From a virus (lineage: Duplodnaviria > Heunggongvirae > Uroviricota > Caudoviricetes), in IMG/VR virus record IMGVR_UViG_3300023371_000080: 64,000 bases of DNA. One strand, 5' to 3'. The position numbers were made by a program, and so were the translations under genes. How positions within the stretch are numbered: the first letter of the stretch is position 1; each line of letters begins with the position of its first letter. Positions 17,566 through 51,255 of the stretch are shown in pieces. The notes beneath the pieces were generated by a model that searched no databases, was not told the DNA's origin, and saw only the letters and a program-made list of their open reading frames with translations.

Positions 17566-17666
17566 AAATTTAACGCTCCTTATATAATTTGGTCGAATAT
17601 GTCCGATTCGAACGGCTCCCCGTGCTTCCAATGCACGTATGCTACCATTACACCACATACTCGATA

Positions 17667-17742
17667 TGGCTGGCGATGTAGGATTTGAACCTACGAATAA
17701 CGGAGTCAAAGTCCGCAGTGTTGACCGCTTCACCAATCGCCA
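17667..17742 (-). tRNA. tRNA-Gln (anticodon UUG)
   Basis: rc gives TGGCGAT acceptor, anticodon loop CTTTGAC, T-arm GTAGGTTCAAATCCTAC, encoded GCCA end. Confidence 0.6.
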
Positions 17743-17892
17743 GTATAGATGGCGATTCTTAACTCTTTCGAGAGGCCAATCGCCTTAGCCTTGAGCCGTC
17801 TGTTCCCAGCAGATGACTCACTGAATTGTGAAGCGTATTGCTTCAATAAAAATGTGATTAAATCGTGCGAGGTTCCGTCTTAGAACTTCTGC

Positions 17893-17977
17893 TGGCGCAA
17901 AGGGAGGGATTCGAACCCTCGGACTCCGAAGAGTCGCCGCGTTAGCAGTGCGGTGCAATCGACCAGACTCTGCCACC
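17893..17977 (-). tRNA. class II tRNA, probably tRNA-Ser (GCU)
   Basis: rc ends GAGGGTTCGAATCCCTCCCTTTGCGCCA; long variable arm; anticodon loop CTGCTAA. Confidence 0.45.
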
Positions 17978-18479
17978 TTTGCATATGAATACGGTTAACT
18001 TTCCTCAAGATGACGATCCAAGGAGATTTGAACTCAGTTCACCGTAAGCATCACACCACGCCAATGCTTAAGACCGCCATATGTAAGAAGAAAGTATAAG
18101 TGTCCTTAAGGAACCTTTTCTACACTGGTAGATAGGCAATTTCACCAAGCAGTATGCCTTAACACAGTACACTACACTCCCTCTGCTTGGGTTTCATTGG
18201 GCTGTTCATCTAACTCCATTTCACCACTGCTGCTATCTCCTTGTTATACTCATTACAGCAAGAATTTCTTCTTCATTCGAGTTCCTTTTGTGTAACGCCA
18301 ACACCAAATGCGTCTACCAATCGGAAGGCTTCGTGGCACCCAACTTAACTTCCTTGATTAGGCGCAAGGGAACGCCACACTTAAGCAGGCGGATATTCCT
18401 CCGCAGTAGAATTTCTCATGACCAAATCCTCCTTTGCTAAGTATCGTAAGCTTTTGAGCTTGTTTTTGTCCTTACGGAC
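17978..18479. other. ORF-free, relatively GC-rich ~500-bp region inside tRNA island with tRNA-like fragments (possible pseudo-tRNAs or structured ncRNA)
   Basis: No ORF >=60 aa on either strand; contains GAGTTCAAATCTCC T-loop-like segment and AAGCAT..ATGCTT hairpin. Confidence 0.3.
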
Positions 18480-18581
18480 TGGAGCGATAGGCTAGATTCG
18501 AACTAGCATGTCTACCAAGACTTAAACGGAATCGAACCGCACGGGCTATAACCCCACTTTACCATTATAGTTTACTATCGC
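18480..18581 (-). tRNA. atypical ~100-nt tRNA-like element with two T-arm-like hairpins and encoded CCA
   Basis: rc: GCGATAG acceptor .. GCGGTTCGATTCCGT .. GCTAGTTCGAATCTAGC-CTATCGC-T-CCA; too long for a canonical tRNA. Confidence 0.3.
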
Positions 18582-18878
18582 GCATGCCCCACACTTAACG
18601 CTAACAGACTCCTACTGACCAGTGGGCTACGGCTATGACATTACTTCATTCTGCTTCGAAGGGACATTTGTTATCCGCATTTCCTTACGGGCAAGACCTG
18701 CTTTCACCCATTTGCAATTGGGTTTCTTTTAATAATCCTTCGGCTTAACCCCGCCTACCACGCGGGTGCTTTATTTCGAATTACGCATTCTTACTTGCGT
18801 ACCATTAACCTACAACGCTATTCGACAGGGTTGTTATAATTTTTTACTAGCAGACCTTAACAACTTATCATACTGCCC

Positions 18879-18954
18879 TGGTGAGTCTGGAGAGATTCGA
18901 ACTCTCGACCCCGTGATTAAAAGTCACGTGCTCTGCCAACTGAGCTACAGACTC
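18879..18954 (-). tRNA. tRNA-Lys (anticodon UUU)
   Basis: rc: GAGTCTGTAGCTCAGTTGGCAGAGCACGTGACTTTTAATCACGGGGTCGAGAGTTCGAATCTCTCCAGACTCACCA, canonical cloverleaf. Confidence 0.75.
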
Positions 18955-18962
18955 ATATAAAG

Positions 18963-19015
18963 TGAGATTTCTAAAACCCTCCACAGTGGGAAACTCCATC
19001 TCGATGTTTTTTTAT
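18963..19015. repeat. conserved nested-hairpin element E1 immediately 5' of tRNA-Lys (hairpin + T7 on plus strand)
   Basis: GAGATTTCTAAAACC-CTCCACAGTGGGA-AACTCCATCTC GATGTTTTTTT; near-identical architecture to E2. Confidence 0.45.
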
Positions 19016-19043
19016 TACAGGAGGTGATCGTATGATGTACGAA

Positions 19044-19127
19044 TGGTGCAGATACTGGGATTCCAACCCAGACGCCTTGCAGCAATAGATCCTAAGTCTA
19101 TCGTGTCTTGCAGTTCCACCATATCTG
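19044..19127 (-). tRNA. class II tRNA, probably tRNA-Leu (UAG)
   Basis: rc: GCAGATA acceptor, anticodon arm ATAGA-CTTAGGA-TCTAT, long variable arm, T-arm CTGGGTTGGAATCCCAG, TATCTGC-A-CCA. Confidence 0.5.
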
Positions 19128-19131
19128 CATA

Positions 19132-19216
19132 TTGGTGCGAATGGTGGGACTTGAACCCACACGCTTTATAGCAATGGTGTTTGAGACCACATCGTCTGCC
19201 AATTCCGACACACTCG
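19132..19216 (-). tRNA. class II tRNA, probably tRNA-Leu (CAA)
   Basis: rc: GCGAGTG acceptor, anticodon loop CTCAAAC, T-arm GTGGGTTCAAGTCCCAC, CATTCGC-A-CCA. Confidence 0.6.
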
Positions 19217-19224
19217 CATATAGA

Positions 19225-19275
19225 TGAGACGTCTAAAACCTACTGCAATAGGAAACTTCGTCTCAAGTTTTTTTA
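19225..19275. repeat. conserved nested-hairpin element E2 immediately 5' of tRNA-Leu(CAA)
   Basis: GAGACGTCTAAAACC-TACTGCAATAGGA-AACTTCGTCTC AAGTTTTTTT. Confidence 0.45.
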
Positions 19276-19368
19276 ACTTTTGGAGGTCTGACGTGCAAAC
19301 AAATCTCGCTACGTGCTCTCCCTAACAGCGTACAACTCCTTACGAGCGTGGGTGTTGCCCTCTTACGA

Positions 19369-19412
19369 GGTCGCAGGGTTACTGGTTTGGAGAGCGCCTA
19401 CTACTAACCCTT
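19369..19412 (+). terminator. terminator-like hairpin + T-run on plus strand
   Basis: GGGTTA..(loop)..TAACCC followed by TTTTTCG. Confidence 0.3.
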
Positions 19413-19425
19413 TTTCGATAGTTAT

Positions 19426-19923
19426 TTATGACAAGAAATTTTTCGACTTATATTTATGTATGTTCTTGCCCTTATAATTGTCGGTTAAGGCATGACAATT
19501 AGGACATAATAATTGTAAATTTTCTATATTGTTATTTTCTTTATTTCCATCTTTATGATGTACTTCAAGTGGTATAGGAACATTATTCCATAATGTATTT
19601 TTACAACACTCACAAATATGTTCTTTAAGTCCCTCGCGAAGAAGTTTCTTTCTTATTTTGTTGGTTTGAACATTTTTACTTTTAATATATTCATTAAATG
19701 GAACATATCTATCACTTTCATAAGTTTTTCCAGATAACCAACCTTGTCCAGTGAAATGAGATATATCGAGATTTAATTCTTGAATCATTGATTGCAAAGT
19801 TATATAACTAGAACCGCACTTACTGTATCCTAATTTTTGAGATAATGTTGACCAACTATAACTTTCTTTTACATATTGTTCAATCTCTTGTCTGGTGTAA
19901 TTTCTCCATTTTGCTTTCTTCAT
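19426..19923 (-). CDS. HNH homing endonuclease inserted in tRNA island
   Basis: HNH motif EVHHKDGNKENNNIENLQLLCPNCHA; 165 aa. Confidence 0.8.
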   Translation of the reverse strand: MKKAKWRNYTRQEIEQYVKESYSWSTLSQKLGYSKCGSSYITLQSMIQELNLDISHFTGQGWLSGKTYESDRYVPFNEYIKSKNVQTNKIRKKLLREGLKEHICECCKNTLWNNVPIPLEVHHKDGNKENNNIENLQLLCPNCHALTDNYKGKNIHKYKSKNFLS

Positions 19924-20400: not shown

Positions 20401-20519
20401 TAATCTCTGCCACCCATTTCAGAGGTGTACGGTCTCTTAAGAAATGGTTCGTACTTGTGGCATACTTAATATGGCTTTGTACTCACTACTCAATCATTTT
20501 GTCTTGTTTCTGTTGTGCC

Positions 20520-20553
20520 TATATTATAGCACAACTTTTTCGTTTTGTCAATA
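20520..20553 (-). promoter_or_regulatory. strong promoter module upstream of the tRNA island (TTGACA -17- extended TGCTATAAT) with TTTACAAT repeats at 20561-20580
   Basis: minus strand TTGACAAAACGAAAAAGTTGTGCTATAAT; no protein gene downstream before the tRNAs. Confidence 0.5.
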
Positions 20554-20587
20554 CCTTTTCGTAATCGTTTACAATCTGTTTACAATT

Positions 20588-20803: not shown

Positions 20804-20832
20804 TCTTTTTATGTCCTCTCTTATGTTGTGCT

Positions 20833-20866
20833 AATATTATATCATAATCATTCTGTTTTGTCAATA
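20833..20866 (-). promoter_or_regulatory. sigma70-type promoter
   Basis: minus strand TTGACA (20859-20864) -17- TATAAT (20836-20841). Confidence 0.5.
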
Positions 20867-20915: not shown

Positions 20916-21824
20916 CTAGTGGGCCGCCTTATCGGCTTCGTGAAGTTGCATTATATCATTATACAATTCTTCTCCCCAAAGCCTACGATACTTATTGTGC
21001 AACTTCTCATTATTATCCTTTTCCCAGAAGTAAGGTTGCATGTGCCAACGAATTAAAACTGCAACATACAGCAGATCTATCTTATCAGAAAAATCTTCGC
21101 GATAAAATAAACTATCATAGCTGCCTGTGTGCTCGTGGTTGTAATAATGAGCTTGTTCGGTTATCTCACCTTTTGTATTTTTGAATGTCTTGCAAAATGG
21201 TTTACCGCAATCGTGCAGCATTCCAGCGAATTTAAGTTCCTTCGACGTATTATTTAATTTAACACATACTGCTTCACAATGCTCGCCTAACGTTAAAGTA
21301 TGATGTGTATTATGTTGATTAAAATGTTTATTCGCAAGATAAAAATTGTTAGGGAGTCTATAATTCGTATCATAATGCATAACTATTATATCATCCCATC
21401 CCTCATAGTCCCACGGCGGATCAAAATTCGTATACATTCTTTTGATAACATACTCAGGCACTTTTCTGTCTCTTTTTGCACTACGCTCAAGACAGGTCTC
21501 GTATGGAGTCGCCATTAATACACAGACTTTTTTACAGGGAATATTCTTTAATTCCTGTAAAAACGCTTTACGCTCCTTATAGTGGACACAACAAGCATCA
21601 TATATACAACTTTTCCCACTCCTTAAATCATCCTTAACGCGCTGATGGAGTGTCTTGAAGACTAAGACGTTGTTTTCTTGATTATTAGTGTCTCCTGTAA
21701 GCTCCTCACGAATAGCGTCACTAGAATGAATATTGGCGTTGTAGTTCTTGGCAAGTCTTATGGCTTCTGTGGATTTGCCACTACAGGGTAAACCGCACAT
21801 CATCCAAAAAGTCGGTCTATTCAT
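20916..21824 (-). CDS. bifunctional polynucleotide kinase (P-loop) / HD-domain phosphohydrolase (RNA/DNA end-healing enzyme)
   Basis: N-terminal Walker A MMCGLPCSGKST (PNK/AAA_33-like), C-terminal HD signatures LHDCGK and NHEHTG. Confidence 0.6.
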   Translation of the reverse strand: MNRPTFWMMCGLPCSGKSTEAIRLAKNYNANIHSSDAIREELTGDTNNQENNVLVFKTLHQRVKDDLRSGKSCIYDACCVHYKERKAFLQELKNIPCKKVCVLMATPYETCLERSAKRDRKVPEYVIKRMYTNFDPPWDYEGWDDIIVMHYDTNYRLPNNFYLANKHFNQHNTHHTLTLGEHCEAVCVKLNNTSKELKFAGMLHDCGKPFCKTFKNTKGEITEQAHYYNHEHTGSYDSLFYREDFSDKIDLLYVAVLIRWHMQPYFWEKDNNEKLHNKYRRLWGEELYNDIMQLHEADKAAH

Positions 21825-22618
21825 TTGTCTATTTCCTTTCTAAAACTATGCTTTAACACATCAAATAACACGCTATTCATAATCTCATCAACCTCAGAGT
21901 CGATAACCAATGGGTGGGTATCCATATATTCTTGCTTTGTAAGTTTAACAAGATATTCAATGTTATTTGCCATTTGCCTTGCTTCTTCCAATGAATGAAT
22001 ATACTCAGCCTTAACGTTGATTAAATACTGAGGGTTCGTAGGAATAAGACATTCTGCATAAGAAGTTCCAGCGATATACCTATTAAGAAACTCTTCACAA
22101 CGAATAATGTGGTGCAATTGTTTATTGTCGTAACCATACTTTTTGATCTTTTCAATAAGTGTGGGATACGGATGTTCCATCGCTTTATGCTTTTCGTACA
22201 CCATTCCTGCAATGCAATTAACCGCCGCATAGTTATTATAGTGCGCTATCTTTTCATTGCTATCAAACATAGGTTGATATAAATCTGCATATTCTGGATT
22301 AAGATACTTATATTTCGTGAATAGGATTTCTATGAAGTTGATATTTTGCTTACGAAAACAATCGTGCATTAATCTGATATCTTTAATATCTATATGTTCG
22401 TTGCTCGGCAATATTAATGTTGTGCTTGCAGGTTTACGATTAAGCACGAAGTCTTCAAATGCGGGAATGACTATCGCCTTAGTGTCGATATCGCTGCCCT
22501 CATAATCAAGATGGTAGTTTTGGGAGCCTTGAAGAAAAACTCCCAAAACCTTATAGCCCAAAGAGGCGGCATAATCAAAATCGGATTTCAGTCTATTGAA
22601 AATTTTATCATCTTTCAT
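21821..22618 (-). CDS. Pol-beta-superfamily nucleotidyltransferase
   Basis: GSQNYHLDYEGSDIDTKAIV = GS-x10-SDxD nucleotidyltransferase motif; 265 aa. Confidence 0.5.
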   Translation of the reverse strand: MKDDKIFNRLKSDFDYAASLGYKVLGVFLQGSQNYHLDYEGSDIDTKAIVIPAFEDFVLNRKPASTTLILPSNEHIDIKDIRLMHDCFRKQNINFIEILFTKYKYLNPEYADLYQPMFDSNEKIAHYNNYAAVNCIAGMVYEKHKAMEHPYPTLIEKIKKYGYDNKQLHHIIRCEEFLNRYIAGTSYAECLIPTNPQYLINVKAEYIHSLEEARQMANNIEYLVKLTKQEYMDTHPLVIDSEVDEIMNSVLFDVLKHSFRKEIDK

Positions 22619-22628
22619 TTAAATCTCC

Positions 22629-23846
22629 TTAATTTCCAATCTCAATCAAATACTTAATAGTCATCTGGTCTTCCTTATACACTACAATCTCATCATTTCG
22701 AAGCATACCTCTATCGGCGTGTGCATGTAGGCAGTTTGCTCCCTGCTTAAACTGTTGTAACTTATTATAATCAAGGTTATAATACTTGCTGTCAAAATTG
22801 TACACATCATAAGGCGTTCCATAAGCCACATCAAAGATTGCCATATAAGCAGTGTTGTTACCGCCGTGAGCCCAATAAGAACCAGAGAGCGAGGTATAAC
22901 CAATACTCTTTGCACACTTGGGGGCGTAATACACTCCGTACCCAAACATCTTTCCTGTAATTACGGCATTAGTAGGTCTAAGTACTAAGCCTGTCTTAAT
23001 AATAGACCAGAAATTCTCACTACGACTGCCATGGAACAGAAGTCTAGTGTCCTTGATGTCATTCTCCTTAACAAACTTATCAAAACGCTCCTGAGTCTTC
23101 AGATTGGTAACTCTCCAAGCCTTTTTAAACTTATCAGCGGATTCTTTCATCAAAGTCTTAATTAGGGCAATATCATCTTTTGTAGTTTCTTCCATAACAA
23201 GACCAAGCTCTTCGAGAATGGTCTGCTGTTTCTTTTCGGTTGTGGTAACAGACTCAATCTCTGGCTTCACATAAATCTGTCCACGCATTACATCAAGAAG
23301 ATCTTGCTCCTTGGTGATAATCTTTGAAAAATCTTCTGTCTTATTTGCCAGACAATAACGTACATCACTCATTCTTCTAGGAATAACTGTAAACAAGTTA
23401 AGCAGATTGGCATTAAACGCATCAACGGTTATGCTATTATTGGCGAGCTCATCAATAATCTTCTGTGCTGCATCCACCATATCCTGAGTAACAGCAGATG
23501 CTTTTACAGTATAGTTCTTGTTAATAGTCTCACGGGCAAGACTCTGAAGCTTATCCACAATTGCTTTTATGGCTGCGTTCTCAATGTCCTTGTATGGGCT
23601 TTCAGGATTGGTAGAGGAAACTTCCTCCACCAAGTCCTTCTTAAGATCAGTTACATCCTGGTAACCCTTTTTGAGTTTTGATTTGATTTGTGAATCCCAT
23701 TTAGACATAGGATAATATGCTGTTGTTTTAGTTGCATCTACTCTGCCGTATTCAACACGGAACTGATTGCCTTCTGGAAAAAGATTATAGTACTTATTAT
23801 TATTTGCCGTAGTTACCATAATCAAATAAGTAGGTCTTACTTCCAT
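22629..23846 (-). CDS. poly(ADP-ribose) polymerase-like protein (WGR domain + PARP catalytic domain, H-Y-E type)
   Basis: N-term KYYNLFPEGNQFRVEYGRVDA (WGR-like); catalytic LLFHGSRSENFWSIIKTGL, GKMFGYGVYYA, NDEIVVY matching PARP1 LLWHGSR/GYMFGKGIYFA/YNEYIVY. Confidence 0.75.
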   Translation of the reverse strand: MEVRPTYLIMVTTANNNKYYNLFPEGNQFRVEYGRVDATKTTAYYPMSKWDSQIKSKLKKGYQDVTDLKKDLVEEVSSTNPESPYKDIENAAIKAIVDKLQSLARETINKNYTVKASAVTQDMVDAAQKIIDELANNSITVDAFNANLLNLFTVIPRRMSDVRYCLANKTEDFSKIITKEQDLLDVMRGQIYVKPEIESVTTTEKKQQTILEELGLVMEETTKDDIALIKTLMKESADKFKKAWRVTNLKTQERFDKFVKENDIKDTRLLFHGSRSENFWSIIKTGLVLRPTNAVITGKMFGYGVYYAPKCAKSIGYTSLSGSYWAHGGNNTAYMAIFDVAYGTPYDVYNFDSKYYNLDYNKLQQFKQGANCLHAHADRGMLRNDEIVVYKEDQMTIKYLIEIGN

Positions 23847-23858
23847 AGCACCCTCCTA

Positions 23859-24284
23859 TCAAATCTCACAAAACAGAATTTCAACATCCGTATCTTCAAA
23901 GACTTCACAAATAATATCGTAAACCTTGTCCCAATCGAGACGGTCGAGTCCCGATGCAATTTTCGGCATTGCAAGCTTAGTAGTAGCATTCGTTTCCATT
24001 ATGTCTCTCATAGTCTCAAGCGCTTCTTTAACCGCCTCGTATCTTGGCTTATGATAACACTTAGGCTTAGTTACAAGGTTAAATACATTATCAATAAGAA
24101 GCGCATCTCCGCCTTTGTAAGAGTACATATCATACTCTCTGAAGAGCTTAAATCTCATATTGTAAACTTCATCAAAAGTCTTTGCTATACCTGCACCAAG
24201 TGCAAAATCTGCACTAATGCAATGAGCAAGATAATAACCCTGAGGTACCGTAAATAAATCTCTCTGTTCAATGGTAATATTCAT
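23859..24284 (-). CDS. macrodomain protein (ADP-ribose binding/processing)
   Basis: YLAHCISADFALGAGIAKTF .. NVFNLVTK .. LAMPKIASGLDRLDW pattern of macro (A1pp/Poa1p-like) domains; 141 aa. Confidence 0.6.
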   Translation of the reverse strand: MNITIEQRDLFTVPQGYYLAHCISADFALGAGIAKTFDEVYNMRFKLFREYDMYSYKGGDALLIDNVFNLVTKPKCYHKPRYEAVKEALETMRDIMETNATTKLAMPKIASGLDRLDWDKVYDIICEVFEDTDVEILFCEI

Positions 24285-24302
24285 AATACTTCTCCTTCGT
24301 TA

Positions 24303-25358
24303 TTACTTTCCTTCATCGAAAATATCGGACGGAAGAATATACCGACCATCACTGCCTACCACAAGCGGAAGTTCTCCATTCCAACCTTCTGCCATAATCT
24401 TTTCAATAAGGGCATCGGTAATAGACTCTGCAATCTGCTTGTTCGCCTCTGCCTCTGCGGCAGCCTGAATTTTAAGCGCCTCGGCCTTTGCCTTTGCGAT
24501 CTCAATTTCTGCCTGAGCCTCCTTAAGCTTTGCCTGTGCCTTTGCTTCTGCGGCAATAACTTCTGCCTTTGCTTCAGCATCTGCTTTTGCAAGGTTGGCC
24601 TCATTCTTGTTCTCTTGGATAATCAAATCCTGCTCAGATGCAAACTTAGCATCAATTGCCTCCTGGATATCGGGATTCTCAAAAGAAAATCCTTCCTTAA
24701 TGCCAAGAACAGTAATGGTAATACCATATTCCTTGAAATATTCAACTACGGCAGTCTTGACCTTTTCTACAATTTCTGCCTTATGAGTATGAAGCTCAGT
24801 GCTCTTATACTGGCTAGTTGCGATATTAAACTGATCCTCAACCATCTTCTTGATATCAGTATCAATAATGGTTTCAAGAGGAGTATTGTTATAACGGTAA
24901 AGGAACTTAGCAGCATCCTTTTCCTCAATCATAGCCGTGCAGTTCATACCGACATAAATTCCAATGGCATCGGATGTTTCACCAAAAATAGCCTTATTGC
25001 TACTGGTTGCAGCAGAATCGCCAGATTCCCAAGAACGAGATACGGGCTTGCGCTCAACAACAATTACAGTTGCAGAAGGACGCCAGTTACCCATCCAATG
25101 ACGACGACCAGTCTGGACCCAGCGATGCGGGATCTGAATCTCTTTGGTTGCAACCTTGGTTTCGAGAAGCAGAGCCTCAGACTCAAAAGTGCCCTGATTG
25201 GTGGTGTCGCCTATAAGAGGAATGAGGAACGCAGTCTGCGAGGGTTCGATAGTCATAAATTCGGGCTTGTCGTAAGGTTTGCGGCAACTAGTGAAGCAGC
25301 AAAGAATGAGAGTAAGAAGTGTTGCGAGAATAAAAGTTCTAAAAATAGTCTTTTTCAT
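24303..25358 (-). CDS. SPFH/band-7 domain lipoprotein with Ala/Glu/Lys coiled-coil
   Basis: Lipobox LILCCFTSC, band-7 core, AEAKAEVIAAEAKAQAKLKEAQAEIEIAKAKAEALK region. Confidence 0.55.
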   Translation of the reverse strand: MKKTIFRTFILATLLTLILCCFTSCRKPYDKPEFMTIEPSQTAFLIPLIGDTTNQGTFESEALLLETKVATKEIQIPHRWVQTGRRHWMGNWRPSATVIVVERKPVSRSWESGDSAATSSNKAIFGETSDAIGIYVGMNCTAMIEEKDAAKFLYRYNNTPLETIIDTDIKKMVEDQFNIATSQYKSTELHTHKAEIVEKVKTAVVEYFKEYGITITVLGIKEGFSFENPDIQEAIDAKFASEQDLIIQENKNEANLAKADAEAKAEVIAAEAKAQAKLKEAQAEIEIAKAKAEALKIQAAAEAEANKQIAESITDALIEKIMAEGWNGELPLVVGSDGRYILPSDIFDEGK

Positions 25359-25642
25359 TATATATTAAGTTCCTTTTCTAATTTATTCATATAAATAGCG
25401 GAGTAAATGTTTCTTCCGCAGATAATACAAGTGAGAAGACGAATGATAGTAAATATCATAGGGACATAGTTCCAGAGCCTCCAAGTGGCATAGCTCATAT
25501 CATCGTTTTCAAGCTGACCTAGAGCCATGTCATTGGTAAATGTGGGCATAAATGCGTCAGAGATAATTGTCAATGCTATAAAAATTACAATTACCACAAT
25601 GAGATTTATAATAATTTTCTTAACCATTATTTTCCTCCACAA
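25358..25642 (-). CDS. small membrane protein
   Basis: 94 aa, two predicted TM helices. Confidence 0.4.
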   Translation of the reverse strand: MWRKIMVKKIIINLIVVIVIFIALTIISDAFMPTFTNDMALGQLENDDMSYATWRLWNYVPMIFTIIRLLTCIICGRNIYSAIYMNKLEKELNI

Positions 25643-25932
25643 AAAGGACAGTTGCTTGAAGAGAAGAGGATATAAGTGCCCTCAGCGCAGAAAATATTAT
25701 CATACTCTGCGGTTTTTACCTCAATGCCTGAACCTTCGTTTTCATACCACTTTTCAATGGTTGCGCAATGACCTTCTACTCCGTTGAAGAAGTGGATATG
25801 CCTAAAATCGTAGCTTCCCCAACCTATGCTCCTATTGTTTGCGCTCACTTCAGTGGGGCATAGAGTGATGAACGCGGAGACCATCATAGCTGATACAAGC
25901 AATGCGCAAATAACAATAACTACTTTATTCAT
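25627..25932 (-). CDS. small secreted/membrane Cys-containing protein
   Basis: Start reset to MNKVVIV (AGGAGG RBS); signal-like N-terminus; C-terminal NCPFCGGK. Confidence 0.4.
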   Translation of the reverse strand: MNKVVIVICALLVSAMMVSAFITLCPTEVSANNRSIGWGSYDFRHIHFFNGVEGHCATIEKWYENEGSGIEVKTAEYDNIFCAEGTYILFSSSNCPFCGGK

Positions 25933-27328
25933 TATTTGATTCCTCCTGGCTCTCTTCCATATCAGGAGCCTCTGCTTCAACCTTCACAATGCCCTCAAGA
26001 GCCTTGAAGAACCAATTCTTATGCTTATATGCACAGAACTTAGGACGGTTGATAATACGAACCACTACACCCTCACGAACATGCGTCTTACCAATGGGAT
26101 CGGGTCCATCATAGAACTCTTCGGCAGCTTTTATAACCATATCACCAACCGTGCCATCACCAATTAGATAATCGTGGTCATATCCATCTGGAGCAACTAG
26201 ATGCAGTCTATCGCTGCTTATTGTTGCCGTTCCAAATACAGGAACGCACTTAACACCCATCTGCTCACAACGATAACGCATAAAGTCAGGAGTGTATTCT
26301 ACGGTAAAGCCATCCTCATTGGTCATCGTCATACGATATACATAGATATCAGACTGAGGACCAACCCACACGACATCTTCATAGTGACCTTCGTCGGTGC
26401 CTTCGGGATCACATCCGTAAGAGAATACAGTAGTCTGTCCATACTGCTTAACAAAATCCTTATCATTAAGCTTCTTATTGTCGCCACTTGCCATAATGGG
26501 AGCCCCAGTATGAGTGAATCCTACGACTTCGTAGAAAATCTCCTCGCCCTTATTCAGCTTACCCTCAAAGAACTTTGAGTGTGCTTCACGGAACTCATTA
26601 GAACCATAATATCCACCTTCAAAATTCTCAAGTACGGTACGACGGGTACCAGATACATATCCCCAATCGTAGATAGGCTTACCTTCACGACGGAGAACCT
26701 TATCAATAAGAGTTCTCTTATACTTCTTGAACACGGGAAGATAACCAGTTCTCTGACTCGTTCCGTGCATCTTGAGCGTAATTTCAATCTCATCACCAGG
26801 CTTAAACGCTGCGAGGTTGTACGCAAGCTGCTCAGTGTCTGCGTGTTCTGCAAAAAGGGGCGCCACAGGAACCTTCTTCTTGCGAGTCTTATTACCCTCG
26901 GAATAATGTCCTCTTCTATTTTGCTTTCGAGGGATGTACTTACAACAAATCTCGTGACCATTGAAGTTGTCAATTCTATCACCCTCACGAAGAGCAGTAA
27001 TGTCTCCAAAGGATTCGAGCGCCTTTAGAGGAAGGAAGAGACCATCCGACTTCTCTCCACGAAGTTTGATTGCGGTTACATTTCTCTTGTCTGGGTCCAT
27101 ATAACCGCCGATGTTGTTTCCTGCATCATCCTTCTTGCGAAGCAAATTATTTGCCTCAGCGAACTCGACTGAGAGCTGACCATCCGAAGGAAAATACACA
27201 CCGAGCTGATTGTCTTCATACTCCATCGATACGATTACTGCGTTTCCAAAACACTCACCAATCTGAAGTCTATCGGCATTAGGATGCTTATGTAGATTCT
27301 TAATTCTTGTAATATAAGCGTTATACAT
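25925..27328 (-). CDS. ATP-dependent RNA ligase (Rnl2/Rnl5-like nucleotidyltransferase) with N-terminal tRNA-binding OB domain
   Basis: N-term HPNADRLQIGECFGNAVIV (Trbp111/MetRS-C-like tRNA_bind motif); ligase motif I KMHGTS, motif IV REGVVVRI, motif V AYKHKNWFFK. Confidence 0.65.
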   Translation of the reverse strand: MYNAYITRIKNLHKHPNADRLQIGECFGNAVIVSMEYEDNQLGVYFPSDGQLSVEFAEANNLLRKKDDAGNNIGGYMDPDKRNVTAIKLRGEKSDGLFLPLKALESFGDITALREGDRIDNFNGHEICCKYIPRKQNRRGHYSEGNKTRKKKVPVAPLFAEHADTEQLAYNLAAFKPGDEIEITLKMHGTSQRTGYLPVFKKYKRTLIDKVLRREGKPIYDWGYVSGTRRTVLENFEGGYYGSNEFREAHSKFFEGKLNKGEEIFYEVVGFTHTGAPIMASGDNKKLNDKDFVKQYGQTTVFSYGCDPEGTDEGHYEDVVWVGPQSDIYVYRMTMTNEDGFTVEYTPDFMRYRCEQMGVKCVPVFGTATISSDRLHLVAPDGYDHDYLIGDGTVGDMVIKAAEEFYDGPDPIGKTHVREGVVVRIINRPKFCAYKHKNWFFKALEGIVKVEAEAPDMEESQEESNNE

Positions 27329-27974
27329 TCTTCTTCATCTCCTCTGCTCTTACAATGGCCTCTGCCATCTCCTGGATTCGCTTCTCTCTTTCCATAGCAC
27401 GCTTCTTCGCCCAATGTGCCTTCACCTTCTGATAATTCTTTTCGGCCTTTGCCTTCTTTCGAGCTTCCTCTTCTGCTCTCTTCTTCTTGTCTGCTTCTGC
27501 CTTGTCGTAAAACTTAGTCGCATAAGAAAGCAACTTGCTAAGAACGGCTGTGCCTTCCTTACCAATCATTTCCTTGACAATACAACGAAGAAGTCCGTCC
27601 TCAAAGAAGTAGGGATCGTTACCCTGGACGGTCGCCGTCTGAGTGTCACCGTTTACAAAAGTCATCTTGATGGTGTTTTCGTTAAACACGCCGATAGACT
27701 TGATTGCAGGAATGAGATCCTGGCTGCCATCAAAGAAACCGTCCTTGTAGTATCGTGCAACAATTCGACCAAACTCAACTTCAAGCGACGAACGCTGGTC
27801 AGGTCTGACCTCAGGCTTCTTAGTTGCCTCTTCTATTGCAGAGGTTATATTGGAAAGTGAGTTGGAAGTTACAACCTCATTGACGAAATTCCAACAAGGC
27901 TCGCCGTCGTAAGTGTAAGTTACATTGCCATTATGGCCCGCTTTAATTGTCATTTTCTTTTTCTCCTTAATCAT
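27321..27974 (-). CDS. hypothetical protein with K/E/A-rich C-terminal helix
   Basis: 217-aa first gene of the operon downstream of promoter 27986..28019. Confidence 0.45.
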   Translation of the reverse strand: MIKEKKKMTIKAGHNGNVTYTYDGEPCWNFVNEVVTSNSLSNITSAIEEATKKPEVRPDQRSSLEVEFGRIVARYYKDGFFDGSQDLIPAIKSIGVFNENTIKMTFVNGDTQTATVQGNDPYFFEDGLLRCIVKEMIGKEGTAVLSKLLSYATKFYDKAEADKKKRAEEEARKKAKAEKNYQKVKAHWAKKRAMEREKRIQEMAEAIVRAEEMKKNV

Positions 27975-27985
27975 TTCGTTGTGTG

Positions 27986-28019
27986 CATATTATAGCACAG
28001 TTTCTTTTATTTGTCAATA
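27986..28019 (-). promoter_or_regulatory. sigma70-type promoter with extended -10 and TTTACA(T)T repeats at 28028-28047
   Basis: minus strand TTGACAAATAAAAGAAACTGTGCTATAAT. Confidence 0.55.
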
Positions 28020-28041: not shown

Positions 28042-28782
28042 TTATTTACAATCAGGCTTAAATGTCGGTATTGGATTTAATTTGAATAAATTCTTCTGGT
28101 GAAGGTGATCAATTTTTGCCTTTGCTACTTCATCTTCGCATACACCAGTGCGAATATATTTATTCAATACTTCATAGGTAAACCCAAAGTTATCCTCGTC
28201 AGTTTTGCCACAGAGACCGTCTGAAGGTGTCTTGTGAGTCAACTCATATGGAAGTCCACAGGCATCGCCAATAGCAACCACTTCATCAGAAGTAAAGTTT
28301 AGTATGGGCATTAAATCTGCTACATTATCGCCCCACCTGGTGGAATAACCTATATATGCTTCTGAGGCATTATCTGTTCCAACAACACGTCCATTTACAC
28401 TTTGAGATATGGCATAAAGCGTTGCCATACGAATACGAGGAGGAAGATTTATGGTTGTCTGCTTGCTAATTTCAATATCCGTCGGAAACTGATTGTCAAT
28501 ACCAACAACAGCATCCCAAATATTCATAGTATAACTTTTAATCCCAAGACATTGAATAAGTTTATTAGAATCATCGATATCAGGCTGTACACCACAGGGC
28601 ATCTTTACACCGATTACTCTGTCCTTGCCAAGAGCTTCTACGCAAAGCGCAGCTACAACGCTTGAGTCTTTACCACCACTAATACCAATTACAGCATTAC
28701 AACCTTTTCCATTCTGTTCAAACCACCCTCTAATCCAAGCGACAATTCTATCTTTAATCTCTATCGCATTAAAATTATTCAT
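28042..28782 (-). CDS. nadE: NH3-dependent NAD+ synthetase
   Basis: PP-loop GISGGKDSSVVAALC; start set to MNNFNAIE with GGGGAGA RBS. Confidence 0.8.
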   Translation of the reverse strand: MNNFNAIEIKDRIVAWIRGWFEQNGKGCNAVIGISGGKDSSVVAALCVEALGKDRVIGVKMPCGVQPDIDDSNKLIQCLGIKSYTMNIWDAVVGIDNQFPTDIEISKQTTINLPPRIRMATLYAISQSVNGRVVGTDNASEAYIGYSTRWGDNVADLMPILNFTSDEVVAIGDACGLPYELTHKTPSDGLCGKTDEDNFGFTYEVLNKYIRTGVCEDEVAKAKIDHLHQKNLFKLNPIPTFKPDCK

Positions 28783-29182
28783 GTGTAATCTCCCCATTTT
28801 CAATTTTAGTAATTAATTTATCCAACATTCTATATACAGAAGGCAAGCCACCTCTATCATCAATATAAGCATTTGCATATGTTTTGCGCCCACCAAAAGA
28901 TATAGAACTGTCACAGTTAATACCTTTATATTTAATGCCTACATTTTCCATATACTCCTTGATTATTGGATGCTGCGCTTCGCCATTTCCTGTTAAAATA
29001 ACAACCTCTGAATAAGGCTCCCAACGTTTGAGGAGCGTAATAACATCACTATAAGAACGACCAAGTTTATGAAAATCATAGATGGTATCATCGAAGTCTA
29101 CGCAAAAGATGAGTTTGCCATACTTCTTGAATTCATCTTCAAGTCTTTGATAGCAATTTTCTTCAGAAAGATAAAAATCCAT
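28775..29182 (-). CDS. small HAD-like hydrolase
   Basis: FCVDFDDTIYDF (DxDxT) motif; 135 aa; overlapping start/stop with neighbours. Confidence 0.4.
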   Translation of the reverse strand: MDFYLSEENCYQRLEDEFKKYGKLIFCVDFDDTIYDFHKLGRSYSDVITLLKRWEPYSEVVILTGNGEAQHPIIKEYMENVGIKYKGINCDSSISFGGRKTYANAYIDDRGGLPSVYRMLDKLITKIENGEITHE

Positions 29183-30660
29183 TAAAAATTACCTCCGTGC
29201 AATCTATCTCTAATTTCTGCAAGAGTCTGCTCTTTAGTCATTACTCCATCTTTGAATATGGTGACTAAATGATTCTGATAATCATATTTTGCTTCATCCC
29301 ATGTAGCACCATCTATATAAACAAGTGCTTCTTTCTCTCGACTCCATCTAACGGAACAACATCCCTTCTGCGACTTCTTAAAACCACCATCTTTAGGATT
29401 CTTGAATATCGGATATGGCTTACCGTCAATCTCACAATAAGTCGCCTTGATGCAAGAACTAAAAGTATCTCTTGTGAAAGGCTTCAGAATACCATCTTCC
29501 TCAACACACTGGAACGAGAACGAACCAACACCAAGAGCAACATTGGAACAAGCAAATCCATTTTCCATAAGAATTTGATAAATCTGTTCGCAACGCTGGA
29601 TAGTAATACTGTCGCCATAAATTGCTTTCACATGAGGATTAAGCACTTTATATCCCTTACTATTAATAGTACCACCAAAGATATCCCAAAGTTTAAAAAC
29701 GGTTTTGGTTACAACCTCAACACAGTCACCAGAGTCACCACGCATAAGCATGCAACCATTGTGTGCAAGGATTTCTTCCTTAAGTCTAGGAAGAATATTG
29801 TCAATTACATTCCAATAATCATAAGAGTCAAGTACAGCAGAAAAACTTGTGTTAGGGTAAATTTCTGTAAGCAGTCTTCTAAGAAGAGTTTCCTCATCGC
29901 CATCAACGGCATAGTTACTGCACATTACAGAATGCTCAGTAGAAGGCGAACCAAAAGCCACAGGTTCTTTTGTACAATCACAGTTATAATTTGCCTCAAG
30001 GTAAGGAATTGTAGGAACAGTTGCCGTATTCAAGAAGGATAGACACCAACCAGCTCCCGCCTTTTCAGCAGATTGTAGACATTCTTCACCTCTAAAGTCG
30101 AATGCACCAAGTGCTCTTGCTCTCGGAATATTGTCATCACAAGTGAGGTCATAATACTTGTTGACAATTTCTCTATATGTATAACCAACAGTAGCAGCAA
30201 GCATTGGATGCCATATCTCAGCAGAAATAAGGGATTCTAAACTCTGAGGCAACCACGCAAAATCAGGGTGAGTGTTTGTAATACCAAACATCGGCACATG
30301 CATAGGTACAAGCGTTCCTTCGGGAAGTGCTACAATTTCAATAGGAAGATAGCCAAGCTTGTGAAGATGTTCAATTTTATCAATTTTATATGTGTCCTTG
30401 CCAAGAGTTGCATCCATAACTCTCTTATATTCAGAGATTACTTCATCAAAAGACTTGTTAAAGAATTCGTTGTTAAAATAATCAATAAGATAGGTCTTAA
30501 TGAATCCCTGAAGTCCAAACATTACCACCTTGTCCCATCTCTTTACTCTGCTCATGCGAGGAGTAAAGTAAGATACGGACTTAGTAATGCCCTTGGGGAG
30601 CATTTCGGCATGGACAGCCTTATAGAAATCAATTAACAACATAGGATTTGTTCTTCTCAT
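29182..30660 (-). CDS. nadV: nicotinamide phosphoribosyltransferase family protein (NAMPT/NadV-like; alternatively Namat-like NAD-forming transferase)
   Basis: N-terminal LLIDFYKAVH (cf. NAMPT DSYK), MLMRGDSGD phosphoribosyl-binding region; 492 aa. Confidence 0.7.
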   Translation of the reverse strand: MRRTNPMLLIDFYKAVHAEMLPKGITKSVSYFTPRMSRVKRWDKVVMFGLQGFIKTYLIDYFNNEFFNKSFDEVISEYKRVMDATLGKDTYKIDKIEHLHKLGYLPIEIVALPEGTLVPMHVPMFGITNTHPDFAWLPQSLESLISAEIWHPMLAATVGYTYREIVNKYYDLTCDDNIPRARALGAFDFRGEECLQSAEKAGAGWCLSFLNTATVPTIPYLEANYNCDCTKEPVAFGSPSTEHSVMCSNYAVDGDEETLLRRLLTEIYPNTSFSAVLDSYDYWNVIDNILPRLKEEILAHNGCMLMRGDSGDCVEVVTKTVFKLWDIFGGTINSKGYKVLNPHVKAIYGDSITIQRCEQIYQILMENGFACSNVALGVGSFSFQCVEEDGILKPFTRDTFSSCIKATYCEIDGKPYPIFKNPKDGGFKKSQKGCCSVRWSREKEALVYIDGATWDEAKYDYQNHLVTIFKDGVMTKEQTLAEIRDRLHGGNF

Positions 30661-31463
30661 AATTCAAATACCTCAATCTTTTCGTGTTCCTTTGTAAAAA
30701 TACTGTTAGTCGTATAAACTCTTTCAATGAAACCGCTTGTAAGAAGTTCGCCTTCGAGGATAGTGTTTTCACAATGAGTTATATAAAGATATATGTTCTT
30801 AGCACCAGCCTCTTTGAGTGCTTTAGCAGAATGATAGAAAGTGCCACCACGAGAACAAATGTCGTCAATAATTAAAACATCTCTATCTTTTACAACATCT
30901 TTGTTCATTAGTTCAAGACCAAGAATCTTTCCTGTTTCCCAATCACGCTTTTTAATTCCGAAAGCATAAGCACCCTTTACATAATCTGTGCCACGCTTCA
31001 TTGCGCCTTCATCTGGATAAAAAGCAACCAAGCCATTTTTATTTGGGATAGCTTCAATTGTCCTAGTAATCATTTCCAGTGGATGTTTAACCTTAACATT
31101 GTTAATAAGCGCTGCACAAACATTGCTGTGCGGGTCAAGAATTCTCACTTCAGTAAAATTGAGACCGTTAATCACATCTGCGAAATGCTTCAGAGTAAAA
31201 AATTCATTAGAGCTTTTTACTCTGTCCATACGAGCGTGTGGACAATAAGGCATTTCAAGAATCATATCTTGTCTATCAAAATGTTTGCGAATGCAAATTA
31301 TAGTAAACAGTTCGGCGTCGTTTTCATAGTGCCAAGTGAGTATCTTTGGAGATTTGCCAAACCAATCCAAACTAAAAATAGGCTCTGTATAATCGGTTTC
31401 AATTCTTAAAGAGTTGTCTGGAAAACGAGCCTGTGTTATAAGCTTATCATTTATTTTAATCAT
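30657..31463 (-). CDS. ribose-phosphate pyrophosphokinase-like protein (PRPP synthetase family; possibly ADP-ribose pyrophosphokinase)
   Basis: PRPP-binding PRTase motif VLIIDDICSRGGT; start set to MIKIND (GGAGA RBS) to abut pncA stop. Confidence 0.6.
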   Translation of the reverse strand: MIKINDKLITQARFPDNSLRIETDYTEPIFSLDWFGKSPKILTWHYENDAELFTIICIRKHFDRQDMILEMPYCPHARMDRVKSSNEFFTLKHFADVINGLNFTEVRILDPHSNVCAALINNVKVKHPLEMITRTIEAIPNKNGLVAFYPDEGAMKRGTDYVKGAYAFGIKKRDWETGKILGLELMNKDVVKDRDVLIIDDICSRGGTFYHSAKALKEAGAKNIYLYITHCENTILEGELLTSGFIERVYTTNSIFTKEHEKIEVFEL

Positions 31464-31465
31464 AA

Positions 31466-31975
31466 TTATTCTCCAATCACATTTATCTGGCACATTTTCA
31501 TTGTGGTAAGTGCCGCCTGATGAGTCTCAGGAGTTACACCAGCACAACAACTTGCATCTACTGTAATGCTGATTTCGGGGAACTGAGCCTTGAGAATAAG
31601 TGCATTAGACACTACGCAAATGTCGGTGCAAAGACCTACGAGTTCAATTTCTTCAAAATCAAACAAGTCGTTCCAATATGTGCAACCGAAGGTGTATTTA
31701 TCGACGTGAACACATTCTGGAGAATTAATTTCCTTTGTTATAAGCCAGCCCTCGGTGCCACGAATACAGTGTTCGACAGGCAAGTGCTTGCCCTCGTTGG
31801 TGGTAAGATAATATGCTGAATGAGTATCTCTTGTAAAGATAATCTCATCTCCACGAGCCTTATACTCTTCAATCTTCCTCTTTACATTTGGCACAATAGC
31901 CTGCGCCTCCTTAGTTCCGAGGGCGCCGTCAATAAAATCATTCTGCATGTCAATTACAATAAGCGTTCTTTTCAT
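31466..31975 (-). CDS. pncA: isochorismatase-family nicotinamidase (PncA-like)
   Basis: LIVIDMQNDF, catalytic-Cys region VGLCTDICV; 169 aa. Confidence 0.6.
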   Translation of the reverse strand: MKRTLIVIDMQNDFIDGALGTKEAQAIVPNVKRKIEEYKARGDEIIFTRDTHSAYYLTTNEGKHLPVEHCIRGTEGWLITKEINSPECVHVDKYTFGCTYWNDLFDFEEIELVGLCTDICVVSNALILKAQFPEISITVDASCCAGVTPETHQAALTTMKMCQINVIGE

Positions 31976-32014: not shown

Positions 32015-32048
32015 TGTATTTTATCATATATTTTTAAATTTGTCAATA
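32015..32048 (-). promoter_or_regulatory. promoter of NAD operon with TTTACATT repeats at 32058-32080
   Basis: minus strand TTGACA (32041-32046) -17- TAAAAT; leader AACAAAATGATTTAAAAATCAAAGGAG. Confidence 0.45.
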
Positions 32049-35367: not shown

Positions 35368-35402
35368 GTAAAGTATAGCACCAAAGTTTTAATTTGTCAA
35401 GA
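35368..35402 (-). promoter_or_regulatory. promoter (TTGACA / extended TGCTATACT) with TTTACAAT repeats at 35408-35430
   Basis: minus strand TTGACAAATTAAAACTTTGGTGCTATACT. Confidence 0.5.
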
Positions 35403-45302: not shown

Positions 45303-45337
45303 CATTATTATAATACAAATTCCTTAATTTGTCAAGG
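45303..45337 (-). promoter_or_regulatory. promoter with TTTACAAT repeats at 45343-45366
   Basis: minus strand TTGACAAATTAAGGAATTTGTATTATAAT. Confidence 0.5.
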
Positions 45338-50757: not shown

Positions 50758-50791
50758 CATATTATAGCATAAAGAGAGCTTTTTGTCAATA
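50758..50791 (-). promoter_or_regulatory. promoter with TTTACA repeats at 50803-50822
   Basis: minus strand TTGACAAAAAGCTCTCTTTATGCTATAAT. Confidence 0.5.
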
Positions 50792-51064: not shown

Positions 51065-51255
51065 CTGTATTTCCCTTTCGTCGATTAATAAATATTCTCA
51101 TGTAACATTATACACGAATGTTTGTTCGTTTTCAACCCACAGATTATGGTAAATTTAGGCAGTATTCGCCAAAATTATCAATATAAGTGGGATTACTACT
51201 AAAATACCCAATACAATTGCCCAGCTATGTCTTTCCCATTTCATTCATGTTCTCC

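Follow-up and report, generated by a model that had tools for sequence, protein, structure and literature searches.

A phage operon that places a WGR-PARP and a TARG1-type macrodomain among predicted end-healing and sealing enzymes

The phage sequence IMGVR_UViG_3300023371_000080 (Duplodnaviria; Heunggongvirae; Uroviricota; Caudoviricetes), whose whole 64,000-nt stretch we call the window, contains an operon at 20916-27974 on the minus strand that combines a PARP homologue of PARP1-3-like architecture, a macrodomain of the TARG1 type and three predicted enzymes of nucleic-acid end healing and sealing. Its genes can be divided into three cassettes. Cassette A consists of the TARG1-type macrodomain followed by the WGR-helical domain-ADP-ribosyltransferase (ART) PARP, two genes that travel together in phages; cassette B comprises an Rnl5-like ligase, an RlaP-like 3'-end nucleotidyltransferase (NTase) and a polynucleotide 5'-kinase/phosphoesterase (PNK-HD), predicted to heal and seal ends; and cassette C, a lineage-specific insertion, encodes an SPFH-like lipoprotein and two small membrane proteins. 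The reading that we favour, at a probability of about 0.5, is that the products of cassette A form a break-sensing pair of ADP-ribosylation writer and eraser which would cooperate with the end-healing and sealing enzymes. This reading starts from direct observations, namely which genes are present, their catalytic residues, the predicted promoters and the neighbourhoods that are conserved.

Nine open reading frames (ORFs) fill 27974-20916, overlapping or separated by gaps of which the largest is 18 nt, and all features whose coordinates are given below with a gene or promoter of the operon lie on the minus strand. In the order of transcription their products are a protein of 210 or 217 amino acids (aa), the 467-aa ligase, proteins of 101 and 89 aa, the 351-aa SPFH-like protein, the 141-aa macrodomain, the 405-aa PARP, the 265-aa NTase and the 302-aa PNK-HD. 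A predicted sigma-70-type promoter (TTGACA-17-TATAAT with TG before the -10 element; 27989..28017) matches the consensus at 12/12 positions directly before the first gene, and the next consensus promoter of the same form (20836..20864, again 12/12) comes directly after the last, marking the operon's downstream limit. Given gaps of 18 nt or less and consensus promoters on both sides, we predict that the nine genes form one promoter-bounded transcription unit. A single operon had been proposed in an earlier annotation made from the nucleotide sequence by itself (hereafter the sequence-only reading), which we accept as a prediction; the genes which it listed all exist at their coordinates on the minus strand, its overall observation is confirmed, and its attribution of the DNA to a phage is supported.

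The PARP gene (22629..23846) encodes a WGR domain, a helical regulatory domain and an ART domain. Its product matches Pfam PF00644 (1.1e-23), PARP1 (2e-10) and, over the full length, phrog_23333 (2.4e-66). Within the ART domain, LLFHGS, GYGVYYA and NDEIVVY align with the catalytic residues of PARP1, which we take to be H862, Y896 and E988, and the resulting H-Y-E triad (H272, Y306, E386) is invariant among 23 diverse PARP homologues, down to 25% identity. The WGR domain emerges from the family profile, which matches PARP2 chains comprising WGR, helical and catalytic domains at 4.5e-33 from residue 7 onward; the WGR blocks NNNKYY, [W/Y]GRVG and KKGY align with the PARP2 WGR domain, and positions ~100-260 of the profile alignment cover the PARP1/2 helical domain. 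The window PARP alone gives no Pfam WGR match at E<=0.1, its Cellulophaga and Klebsiella homologues match WGR PF05406 (9e-6 and 2.9e-7 among homologues), and the Klebsiella homologue additionally matches PARP_reg PF02877 (2.7e-8). We therefore predict a bona fide WGR-helical-ART architecture of the PARP1-3 clade, and the WGR-PARP with a complete H-Y-E triad described in the sequence-only reading is upheld. A Tpt1/KptA identity was rejected, as the only ART in the operon matches the PARP family with H-Y-E rather than H-H-h; no operon protein matches Tpt1/KptA in Pfam or NCBIfam.

Phage PARPs are already annotated in GenBank (Cellulophaga phi4:1 and phi17:2, Klebsiella phages, XacN1 and others), and the phage family has more than 4000 metagenomic relatives at E<=1e-5. 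WGR-PARPs were noted in phages earlier (Perina 2014, PMC4245714; Iyer et al., PMC7824862, PMC9503650), and catalogues of bacterial and phage PARPs go back to 2014, with two bacterial enzymes active in vitro and a biological role that the literature describes as unknown (PMC8120803, PMC4245714); the Herpetosiphon PARP (HaPARP) is DNA-dependent (PMC8120803). The clade-1 PARPs of Herpetosiphon aurantiacus, C. difficile CD160, phi4:1 (gp031) and XacN1 (BBA65562) share with the window PARP the WGR, helical and ART domains and the H-Y-E triad, and full-length identity between the window PARP and annotated phage PARPs is 25-39%. However, the eraser in Herpetosiphon and C. difficile is PARG, whereas a TARG1-type macrodomain lies immediately upstream of the window PARP, and, unlike the known clade-1 PARPs, the window pair is embedded in an end-healing and sealing operon. 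In three related contigs from different metagenomes (L002, 968-2185; L003 and L004, 10001-11218; L numbers denote related loci throughout), TAG replaces the codon for the conserved Trp50 of the WGR domain, and the longest remaining ORF encodes a 334-aa protein without a WGR domain; the TAG at codon 50 could mark a pseudogene, amber suppression or a truncated variant.

The partner of the PARP is a predicted ADP-ribosyl hydrolase of the TARG1/OARD1 type (23859..24284). It matches human TARG1 (4j5r, 2eee) at 6e-24 over residues 3-137, so that the macrodomain named in the sequence-only reading stands despite a weak Pfam Macro match (0.003). Like human TARG1/OARD1 it is a single domain of ~140 aa, and the catalytic dyad, Lys84/Asp125 in TARG1 as defined in PMC8120803, is kept: K84 (LITK) aligns with the K of LVTK, and D125 (GLDRL) with the D of GLDRL. 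The DarG macrodomain is also related, DarG models matching at 7e-9 and 7.6e-11, and a PADLOC run on the operon returned only this DarG-like similarity together with weak kinase and HD matches. The PHROG family matched, phrog_335 (4.9e-24), carries the label 'phosphatase', and the similarity to 'phosphatase' macrodomains of Felix-O1-like and Acinetobacter phages is weak (25-28%, E ~1e-4). The best solved relative is TARG1, in a comparison that held no Poa1p or Adpp sequence. We consequently assign the protein, on its alignment, to the TARG1/OARD1 type with catalytic Lys and Asp; a Poa1p type, the analogy drawn in the sequence-only reading, is not demonstrable.

TARG1-like enzymes strip ADP-ribose off Asp/Glu and off phosphorylated nucleic-acid ends (PMC8120803), and candidate substrates of the window enzyme are protein Asp/Glu, poly(ADP-ribose) chains, nucleic-acid ends and ADP-ribose-1''-phosphate. 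Unlike TARG1 and DarG, the window macrodomain is encoded by a phage and is genetically paired with a PARP; reversible ADP-ribosylation, which the sequence-only reading had suggested, is the natural reading of an intact PARP with a macrodomain. A second macrodomain paralogue occurs near the PARP in L002 (+5 genes), L003/L004 (~15.1-15.6 kb), L005, L068 and L091, and in L002-L004 it sits between a bona fide RlaP and LigA.

The ligase (25925..27328), a predicted ATP-dependent RNA ligase, has an N-terminal OB domain (PF21189, 9e-5) followed by an adenylyltransferase domain with the motif I lysine K186, and matches phrog_968 at 1.4e-61. TIGR02306, the DRB0094 family, matches at 4.3e-15 over residues 6-197, with 55.4 bits, which is below the equivalog cut-off of 151.15; PF09414 gives 0.0047 for the window protein and 1.5e-13 for its homologue in L046. 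A library of 1.84 billion representative metagenome and genome proteins yielded 2534 relatives. Among 73 diverse relatives, K186, E267, E419, K435 and K437 are invariant, and 63 of the 73 match TIGR02306 at E<=1e-5 (best 1.3e-21). A single-sequence PDB search found no match and a shallow profile gave only non-significant matches to NgrRnl; the profile of the 73 sequences has Naegleria NgrRnl as its sole PDB match (2e-7), with the OB domain and motif I aligned (KMHGTS with KLDGSS). From these family matches we regard the enzyme as Rnl5-like (DraRnl/NgrRnl), in a distinct subfamily rather than as a strict member, and nick sealing is predicted from the family. It shares with DraRnl and NgrRnl an N-terminal OB and a C-terminal adenylyltransferase domain, but is 467 aa long against ~340 in Rnl5 enzymes and carries large insertions within its catalytic domain. 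The Rnl5 family was founded on DraRnl, which seals ribo-nicks and is connected with DNA ribo-patch repair and genome reassembly in Deinococcus (PMC5397189).

Two more specific labels of the sequence-only reading fall away here, although its OB-fused ligase is retained. An Rnl2 type was rejected because T4 Rnl2 (1s68) scores E=0.27 with the family profile and is not matched by the deeper one, and a tRNA_bind OB of the Trbp111/MetRS-C kind was rejected because no PF01588 match appears at E<=0.1 and the OB domain instead matches PF21189 and the NgrRnl N-domain; a HPNADRL-like motif is present and is not diagnostic. As a relative of the nick-sealing Rnl5 enzymes, the ligase does not imply the tRNA-specific role that had been proposed for it.

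The remaining genes of cassette B encode candidate enzymes for preparing ends. The NTase (21821..22618) belongs to the Pol-beta superfamily, as already recognised from its sequence, and appears to be a divergent relative of RlaP: it matches phrog_388 (9.9e-10), and hhalign aligns it with the 342-aa RlaP of related phages (94.3%, E=1.1e-7) over residues 21-114, the catalytic core. Its match to Pfam RlaP PF10127 (0.012) lies at 15.8 bits below the cut-off of 23, whereas the reference 342-aa RlaP proteins themselves match at 1.8e-19; a single-sequence PDB search with the NTase found no match. RlaP adds one or two nucleoside monophosphates onto damaged RNA 3' ends (PMC12776372). The PNK-HD gene (20916..21824), whose start overlaps the NTase stop (ATGA), encodes a P-loop polynucleotide 5'-kinase (AAA_33, 1.1e-22; TIGR04075 Pnkp, 4.7e-15; best PDB match 4gp7, the Clostridium thermocellum Pnkp kinase domain, 1.8e-11) fused to an HD phosphohydrolase (2.7e-5, the 24.9 bits exceeding a cut-off of 22), and this previously proposed fusion is thereby substantiated. 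The ligase, PNK-HD and NTase bring together the same trio of activities as known RNA-repair cassettes (ligase, PNK/phosphatase and RlaP; T4 Pnk/Rnl; bacterial Pnkp). Breaks with 5'-phosphate and 3'-OH ends are their predicted sites of action. Unlike in plain cassettes of that kind, the macrodomain-PARP pair and the SPFH trio are inserted between ligase and NTase in the window lineage, and the PNK phosphoesterase is of the HD rather than the HAD or calcineurin type.

Comparison of 27 close and 64 further IMG/VR loci (PARP 52-91% identical), collapsed at 90% identity into 43 PARP lineages, shows which of these genes keep company with the PARP. A macrodomain is near the PARP in 38/43 lineages and immediately upstream in 31. 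Next in frequency are DNA ligases and genes for DNA replication and repair: PolIII-alpha (21/43), DnaG and PD-(D/E)XK nucleases (13 each), ThyX and NrdD (12 each), LigA (11), ATP-dependent DNA ligases and DnaB (8 each), ERCC4 (7) and RecJ (6). RNA-repair genes accompany the macrodomain-PARP pair only in the window's close relatives (Rnl5-like ligase 9/43, PNK-HD and RlaP 7/43 each, the 265-aa NTase 6/43), and the coupling of PARP to RNA repair assumed in the sequence-only reading is thus not a conserved operon. L001-L004, which are closest to the window, carry ligase, macrodomain, PARP, NTase and PNK-HD contiguously in this order and lack the SPFH trio, whereas in L006-L008 ligase, NTase and PNK-HD are contiguous on their own, ~3.5 kb upstream of macrodomain and PARP. 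These two arrangements indicate that the window operon is a fusion of two cassettes with a recent insertion. Indeed, the SPFH gene is missing between ligase and macrodomain in L001-L004, the genes for the 101-aa and 89-aa proteins are missing from related loci, and the trio (24303-25932) looks like a recent lineage-specific insertion between ligase and macrodomain; an SPFH homologue lies directly upstream of the macrodomain in L075-L078.

A polynucleotide ligase is found within ~8 genes of the PARP in 23/43 lineages, and at most three genes from it in 16/43, in these typically in the slot just before the macrodomain. Three non-orthologous types share this position: an Rnl5-like ligase (L001-L004), an ATP-dependent DNA ligase (L027/L092/L099/L107) and LigA (L013/L021/L073/L103/L108). 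Comparable neighbours occur in more distant phages. In Cellulophaga phi4:1 an ATP DNA ligase lies two genes downstream of the PARP (one gene between), in the metagenomic phage LR756511 an ATP ligase adjoins it, and in LR756500 a PNK-HD lies 4 kb away; Klebsiella FBKp34 carries a TARG1-like macrodomain and RlaP within 5 kb of its PARP, and XacN1 and RAS14 have RlaP at 8 kb. Another clade shares no more than 24-28% identity with the XacN1 PARP, and there an ATP DNA ligase stands just upstream of the WGR-PARP in 4/8 loci: L126 and L128, and L125 and L127, where the order is calcineurin-like phosphoesterase, ATP DNA ligase, small ORFs and WGR-PARP. Between the ATP DNA ligase and the PARP of L126 lies a gene (7439-8014) for a 191-aa protein with a HSGGCEGADMEWD motif and no Pfam match, which may be a non-macrodomain partner.

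Neither a functional study of phage PARPs nor a TARG1-PARP-ligase neighbourhood turned up in a literature search, an absence there that is not proof of absence. The novelty claimed by the sequence-only reading does not extend to WGR-PARPs in phages, and every component family is already known, phage PARPs included. What appears undescribed in the literature searched is that the partner is fixed and of the TARG1 type, that ligase and end-healing neighbours recur in several PARP clades, and the fusion with an RNA-repair cassette beside a NARP1-like operon.

This last operon (28042..31975, minus strand; Pfam/NCBIfam matches and gene calls) lies directly upstream of the PARP operon and had been passed over in the sequence-only reading. 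From its own consensus promoter (32046-32018) it reads through genes for an isochorismatase/nicotinamidase-like protein (31466-31975), an Adps-like PRS homologue (PF14572; 30657-31463), a Namat/NAMPT-like protein (PF18127+PF04095; 29182-30660), a 135-aa protein with a DxDxT motif that is HAD-like by eye only (28775-29182) and NadE (28042-28782), all on the minus strand. NARP1 regenerates NAD+ out of ADP-ribose and nicotinamide, and its published signature is a PF14572 gene abutting a PF18127+PF04095 gene (bioRxiv 10.1101/2024.02.11.579819); the two window genes overlap by 4 nt. Where the selectivity-helix motif of Namat is GSX-phi-X-phi-X-phi-TRD with aromatic X, the window protein reads GSFSFQCV-EEDGILKPF-TRD; its 'GSFSFQ' matches the start of the published motif and the first two aromatics fit, the third position is Cys, and 9 aa are inserted ahead of TRD. 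The adjoining PRS-like and NAMPT-like genes are common to the window and NARP1/NARP1-AP, but the window operon adds the isochorismatase, the 135-aa protein and NadE, and the macrodomain lies outside it. It is probably an extended NARP1 pathway. Genes like those of this operon also occur near the PARP in L005 and L102.

The WGR domains of PARP2 and PARP3 bind 5'-phosphorylated breaks, releasing autoinhibition by the helical domain. Under the reading that we favour, in which we infer activation by breaks, the targets and the cooperation between cassettes, the phage WGR domain would likewise recognise strand breaks that bear a 5'-phosphate, for which PARP2/3 and the Herpetosiphon PARP, a DNA-dependent enzyme, are precedents, and this recognition would relieve the autoinhibition exerted by the helical domain. 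The ART domain might then ADP-ribosylate the PARP itself, nearby proteins or the nucleic-acid end, so that the break would be marked or protected; PNK-HD and the NTase would render the ends ligatable, the nick-sealing ligase would close the break, and the TARG1-type hydrolase would remove ADP-ribose, resetting the system. Phage DNA nicked during replication or repair, or carrying ribo-patched nicks, could be the substrate, as could RNA:DNA hybrids or RNA, and the NARP1-like operon might rebuild NAD+ from nicotinamide and ADP-ribose, the products of the cycle.

The cast of eukaryotic single-strand break repair consists of PARP1/2, PNKP, Pol beta, Lig3 and TARG1/PARG, and the window operon would, by analogy, hold the same functional cast. 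However, clade-level homology to the eukaryotic proteins is confined to the PARP and TARG1, the window NTase differs from Pol beta in not being a templated polymerase of family X, and an XRCC1-like scaffold is missing. A still broader proposal would be that tailed phages carry a self-contained, PARP-centred strand-break repair which is the viral counterpart, and possibly the source, of the eukaryotic one, comprising a PARP2/3-like sensor of 5'-phosphorylated nicks, PNK-HD and a Pol-beta-type NTase, a nick-sealing ligase whose type can vary (Rnl5-like, ATP- or NAD-dependent), a TARG1-type reset and NARP1-like NAD+ recycling; we regard this as doubtful. The Deinococcus radiodurans genes DR_B0094-DR_B0100 offer a bacterial parallel linked to break repair, since they too combine an Rnl5 ligase, a macro-fold ADP-ribose hydrolase and a polynucleotide kinase: DraRnl lies near an operon of LigB, PARG and PNK, the last a 5'-OH polynucleotide kinase, in a radiation-response cluster (PMC5397189). 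On that paper's description, through which alone the cluster was compared, it has no recognisable PARP gene, and its hydrolase is of the PARG type.

Taken together over about 100 related loci, a very abundant phage PARP family, its fixed TARG1-type partner and recurrent ligase and end-healing neighbours yield a concrete hypothesis in which break sensing is coupled to sealing, and which is addressable in the cultivable relatives Cellulophaga phi4:1 and Klebsiella FBKp34. They also suggest that NAD+ reconstitution of the NARP1 type may serve the phage's own ADP-ribosylation cycle besides counter-defence. Should the break-repair reading be wrong, the locus would still be a well-annotated mosaic accessory-gene operon of large Firmicutes-type phages.

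Several alternative hypotheses may account for the same genes. A serious rival, if a less probable one, is that macrodomain and PARP are an autonomous conflict module functionally unrelated to their neighbours. The PARP might ADP-ribosylate host proteins for takeover in the manner of T4 Alt/Mod, with self-damage held in check by the macrodomain; the two might act as a toxin-antitoxin (TA) or superinfection-exclusion pair whose PARP is triggered by incoming DNA ends; or the macrodomain might erase host DarT-type marks from phage DNA. The pair stays together where the genes around it differ, DarG is among the macrodomain's relatives, lone TARG1-like macrodomains occur in other phages, three related contigs carry the TAG at PARP codon 50, and the SPFH/membrane insertion shows that the operon takes unrelated cargo; surveys have moreover proposed host modification by phage PARPs (PMC7824862), and TA-like pairs of ART or sirtuin with a macrodomain have been described in phages (PMC9503650). 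Nevertheless, a PARP with a WGR domain and an autoinhibitory helical domain is more likely to be activated by nucleic acid, as HaPARP is (PMC8120803), than to be a constitutive host-modifying toxin, non-orthologous ligases beside the PARP in several clades would be unexpected if the pair were unrelated cargo, and PADLOC returned no defence matches bar the DarG-like macrodomain. A dedicated tRNA or RNA repair operon acting against anticodon nucleases, with PARP and macrodomain engaged in RNA-end chemistry (end ADP-ribosylation or Tpt1-like removal of a 2'-phosphate, followed by clearance), seems to us improbable. RNA ligase, PNK-HD and RlaP-like NTase do constitute the classic RNA-repair trio (PMC7824862, PMC12776372), contiguous with macrodomain and PARP in L001-L004; six phage tRNA genes, Lys-UUU and Gln-UUG included, lie 1.7 kb downstream; and TARG1-type enzymes are able to de-ADP-ribosylate nucleic-acid ends (PMC8120803). 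Yet the PARP is an H-Y-E enzyme of the PARP1-3 clade with WGR and helical domains, not an H-H-h Tpt1/KptA, the ligase resembles the Rnl5 duplex nick sealers rather than an Rnl1-type tRNA-loop ligase, and most PARP lineages have DNA ligases or replication genes in place of RNA-repair neighbours. The analogy with Tpt1 and Poa1p in tRNA splicing, on which the sequence-only reading had relied, was rejected on the PARP1-3 clade membership of the H-Y-E enzyme and on the macrodomain's clear relationship to TARG1, Lys/Asp dyad included; of that interpretation, the union of end healing and sealing with an intact WGR-PARP and a macrodomain in one unit survives, and the splicing parallel and the conserved coupling to RNA repair do not.

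That the co-location is an accident of a crowded early-gene region, of no functional meaning, we consider very unlikely. In its favour, genes around the pair are rearranged even between close relatives, the SPFH trio was inserted recently and the neighbour counts are uncorrected for phylogeny; against it, the genes are tightly packed between promoters, and ligase and end-healing neighbours recur in PARP clades that share just 24-39% identity and come from phages of different host phyla. We give scant credence to the idea that the macrodomain is not the partner of the PARP but an Adpp-type ADP-ribose-1''-phosphate phosphatase of the adjacent NARP1 pathway (NARP1-AP). The NARP1-like operon does lie 4-5 kb upstream of the macrodomain, a macrodomain phosphatase resembling Poa1p is encoded in 15% of NARP1 operons (bioRxiv 10.64898/2026.01.28.702374), and phrog_335 and the weakly similar phage macrodomains are labelled 'phosphatase'; however, six genes (~4.9 kb) rather than at most two separate the macrodomain from Namat, which lies upstream of it and behind another promoter, it accompanies the PARP in 38/43 lineages, almost all without NARP1 within 8 kb, and its strong match is to TARG1 with the Lys/Asp dyad kept. 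The break-sensing reading has its own difficulties, and the following observations weigh against it. The neighbour counts lack a genome-wide null and are non-independent, since a single broad phage group whose replication module is syntenic supplies most of the 43 lineages, and in 20/43 lineages no ligase was detected within ~8 genes of the PARP. The TAG at PARP Trp50 in three related contigs suggests that the PARP is dispensable, and lone TARG1-like macrodomains in the PARP-less phages LP65, Fnu1, LC76P1 and phage G indicate that the macrodomain may have a PARP-independent role. The six downstream tRNAs agree at least equally well with a cassette B that acts on RNA, and AlphaFold2 models of PARP and ligase were unusable (pLDDT 40.3 and 47.5, respectively; the sequences in both alignments were all at least 80% identical).

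The other products of the operon are less informative. The SPFH/Band-7-like predicted lipoprotein (24303..25358) has an Ala/Glu/Lys-rich coiled-coil tail and matches phrog_200 (1.9e-25), its Band_7 match (9.1e-4) being under the cut-off. It is preceded by genes, supported by ORFs and gene calls, for the 89-aa small membrane protein with two hydrophobic segments (25358..25627) and the 101-aa small protein with an N-terminal hydrophobic segment (25627..25932), neither of which has a family match in Pfam or PHROG; a lipoprotein and two small membrane proteins had been expected here from the sequence. The first gene of the operon (27321..27953, a 210-aa gene call in identical contigs; 217 aa if the start is 27974) encodes a protein with a Lys/Glu-rich C-terminus. 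An AAGGAG ribosome-binding site precedes the ATG at 27953, and translation probably starts there rather than at 27974. Its product has no match in Pfam, PHROG, NCBIfam or PADLOC, and a homologue is likewise found upstream of the ligase in L003/L004.

The promoters that flank the operon belong to a larger set. With at most one mismatch allowed, a consensus scan of the window finds 11 promoter sites against 1.3 expected, all on the coding strand and all intergenic. These promoters are close to a perfect TTGACAAA-N-TATAAT, and in most of them TG precedes the -10 element; they lie on the minus strand at 381-409, 20523-20551, 20836-20864, 27989-28017, 32018-32046, 35372-35400, 43895-43923, 45307-45335, 50761-50789, 51107-51135 and 54690-54718. 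A repeated module of 46-75 nt (repeat families D1/D2; 20508-20586, 20821-20866 and the 28017-27989 site) is common to the three operon-flanking promoters, and has upstream TGTAAAC repeats, which may represent a regulator or UP element. A weaker site (10/12) at 22795-22767 could serve as an internal promoter. A terminator scan gave no signal (7 found against 7.6 expected).

The operon lies in the window's replication and repair region. Upstream are genes for PolIII-alpha, a RecJ-like DHH protein, a GIY-YIG protein, DnaG and DnaB, and downstream come a small ORF, an HNH endonuclease and six tRNAs, then an endolysin, LigA, HD-ExoX, ThyX, NT5C, NrdD and a large serine recombinase. The tRNA genes (Pro-UGG, Gln-UUG, Ser-GCU, Lys-UUU, Leu-UAG and Leu-CAA; within 17590-19923, ~1.7 kb downstream of the operon) are the only matches in an Rfam scan, and the HNH gene (19426-19923) is just upstream of them in the direction of transcription. 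Lys-UUU and Gln-UUG tRNAs are typical targets of anticodon nucleases. Megablast of the 7-kb region against 50,697 GenBank phages found no match, and hence no close isolate, and a single-protein scan of genome contigs found one 12-kb contig, in a metagenome-assembled genome of 'uncultured Clostridium sp.'. The source is a gut-type phage, and the sigma-70/TG promoters, Amidase_2-SH3 endolysin and SleB-like hydrolase weakly suggest a Firmicutes host. The large serine recombinase (Resolvase, Recombinase and zinc ribbon; 1870-3852) suggests a temperate or integrative lifestyle, and the full-length LigA with BRCT (13821-15788) is a second NAD+ consumer in the same region.

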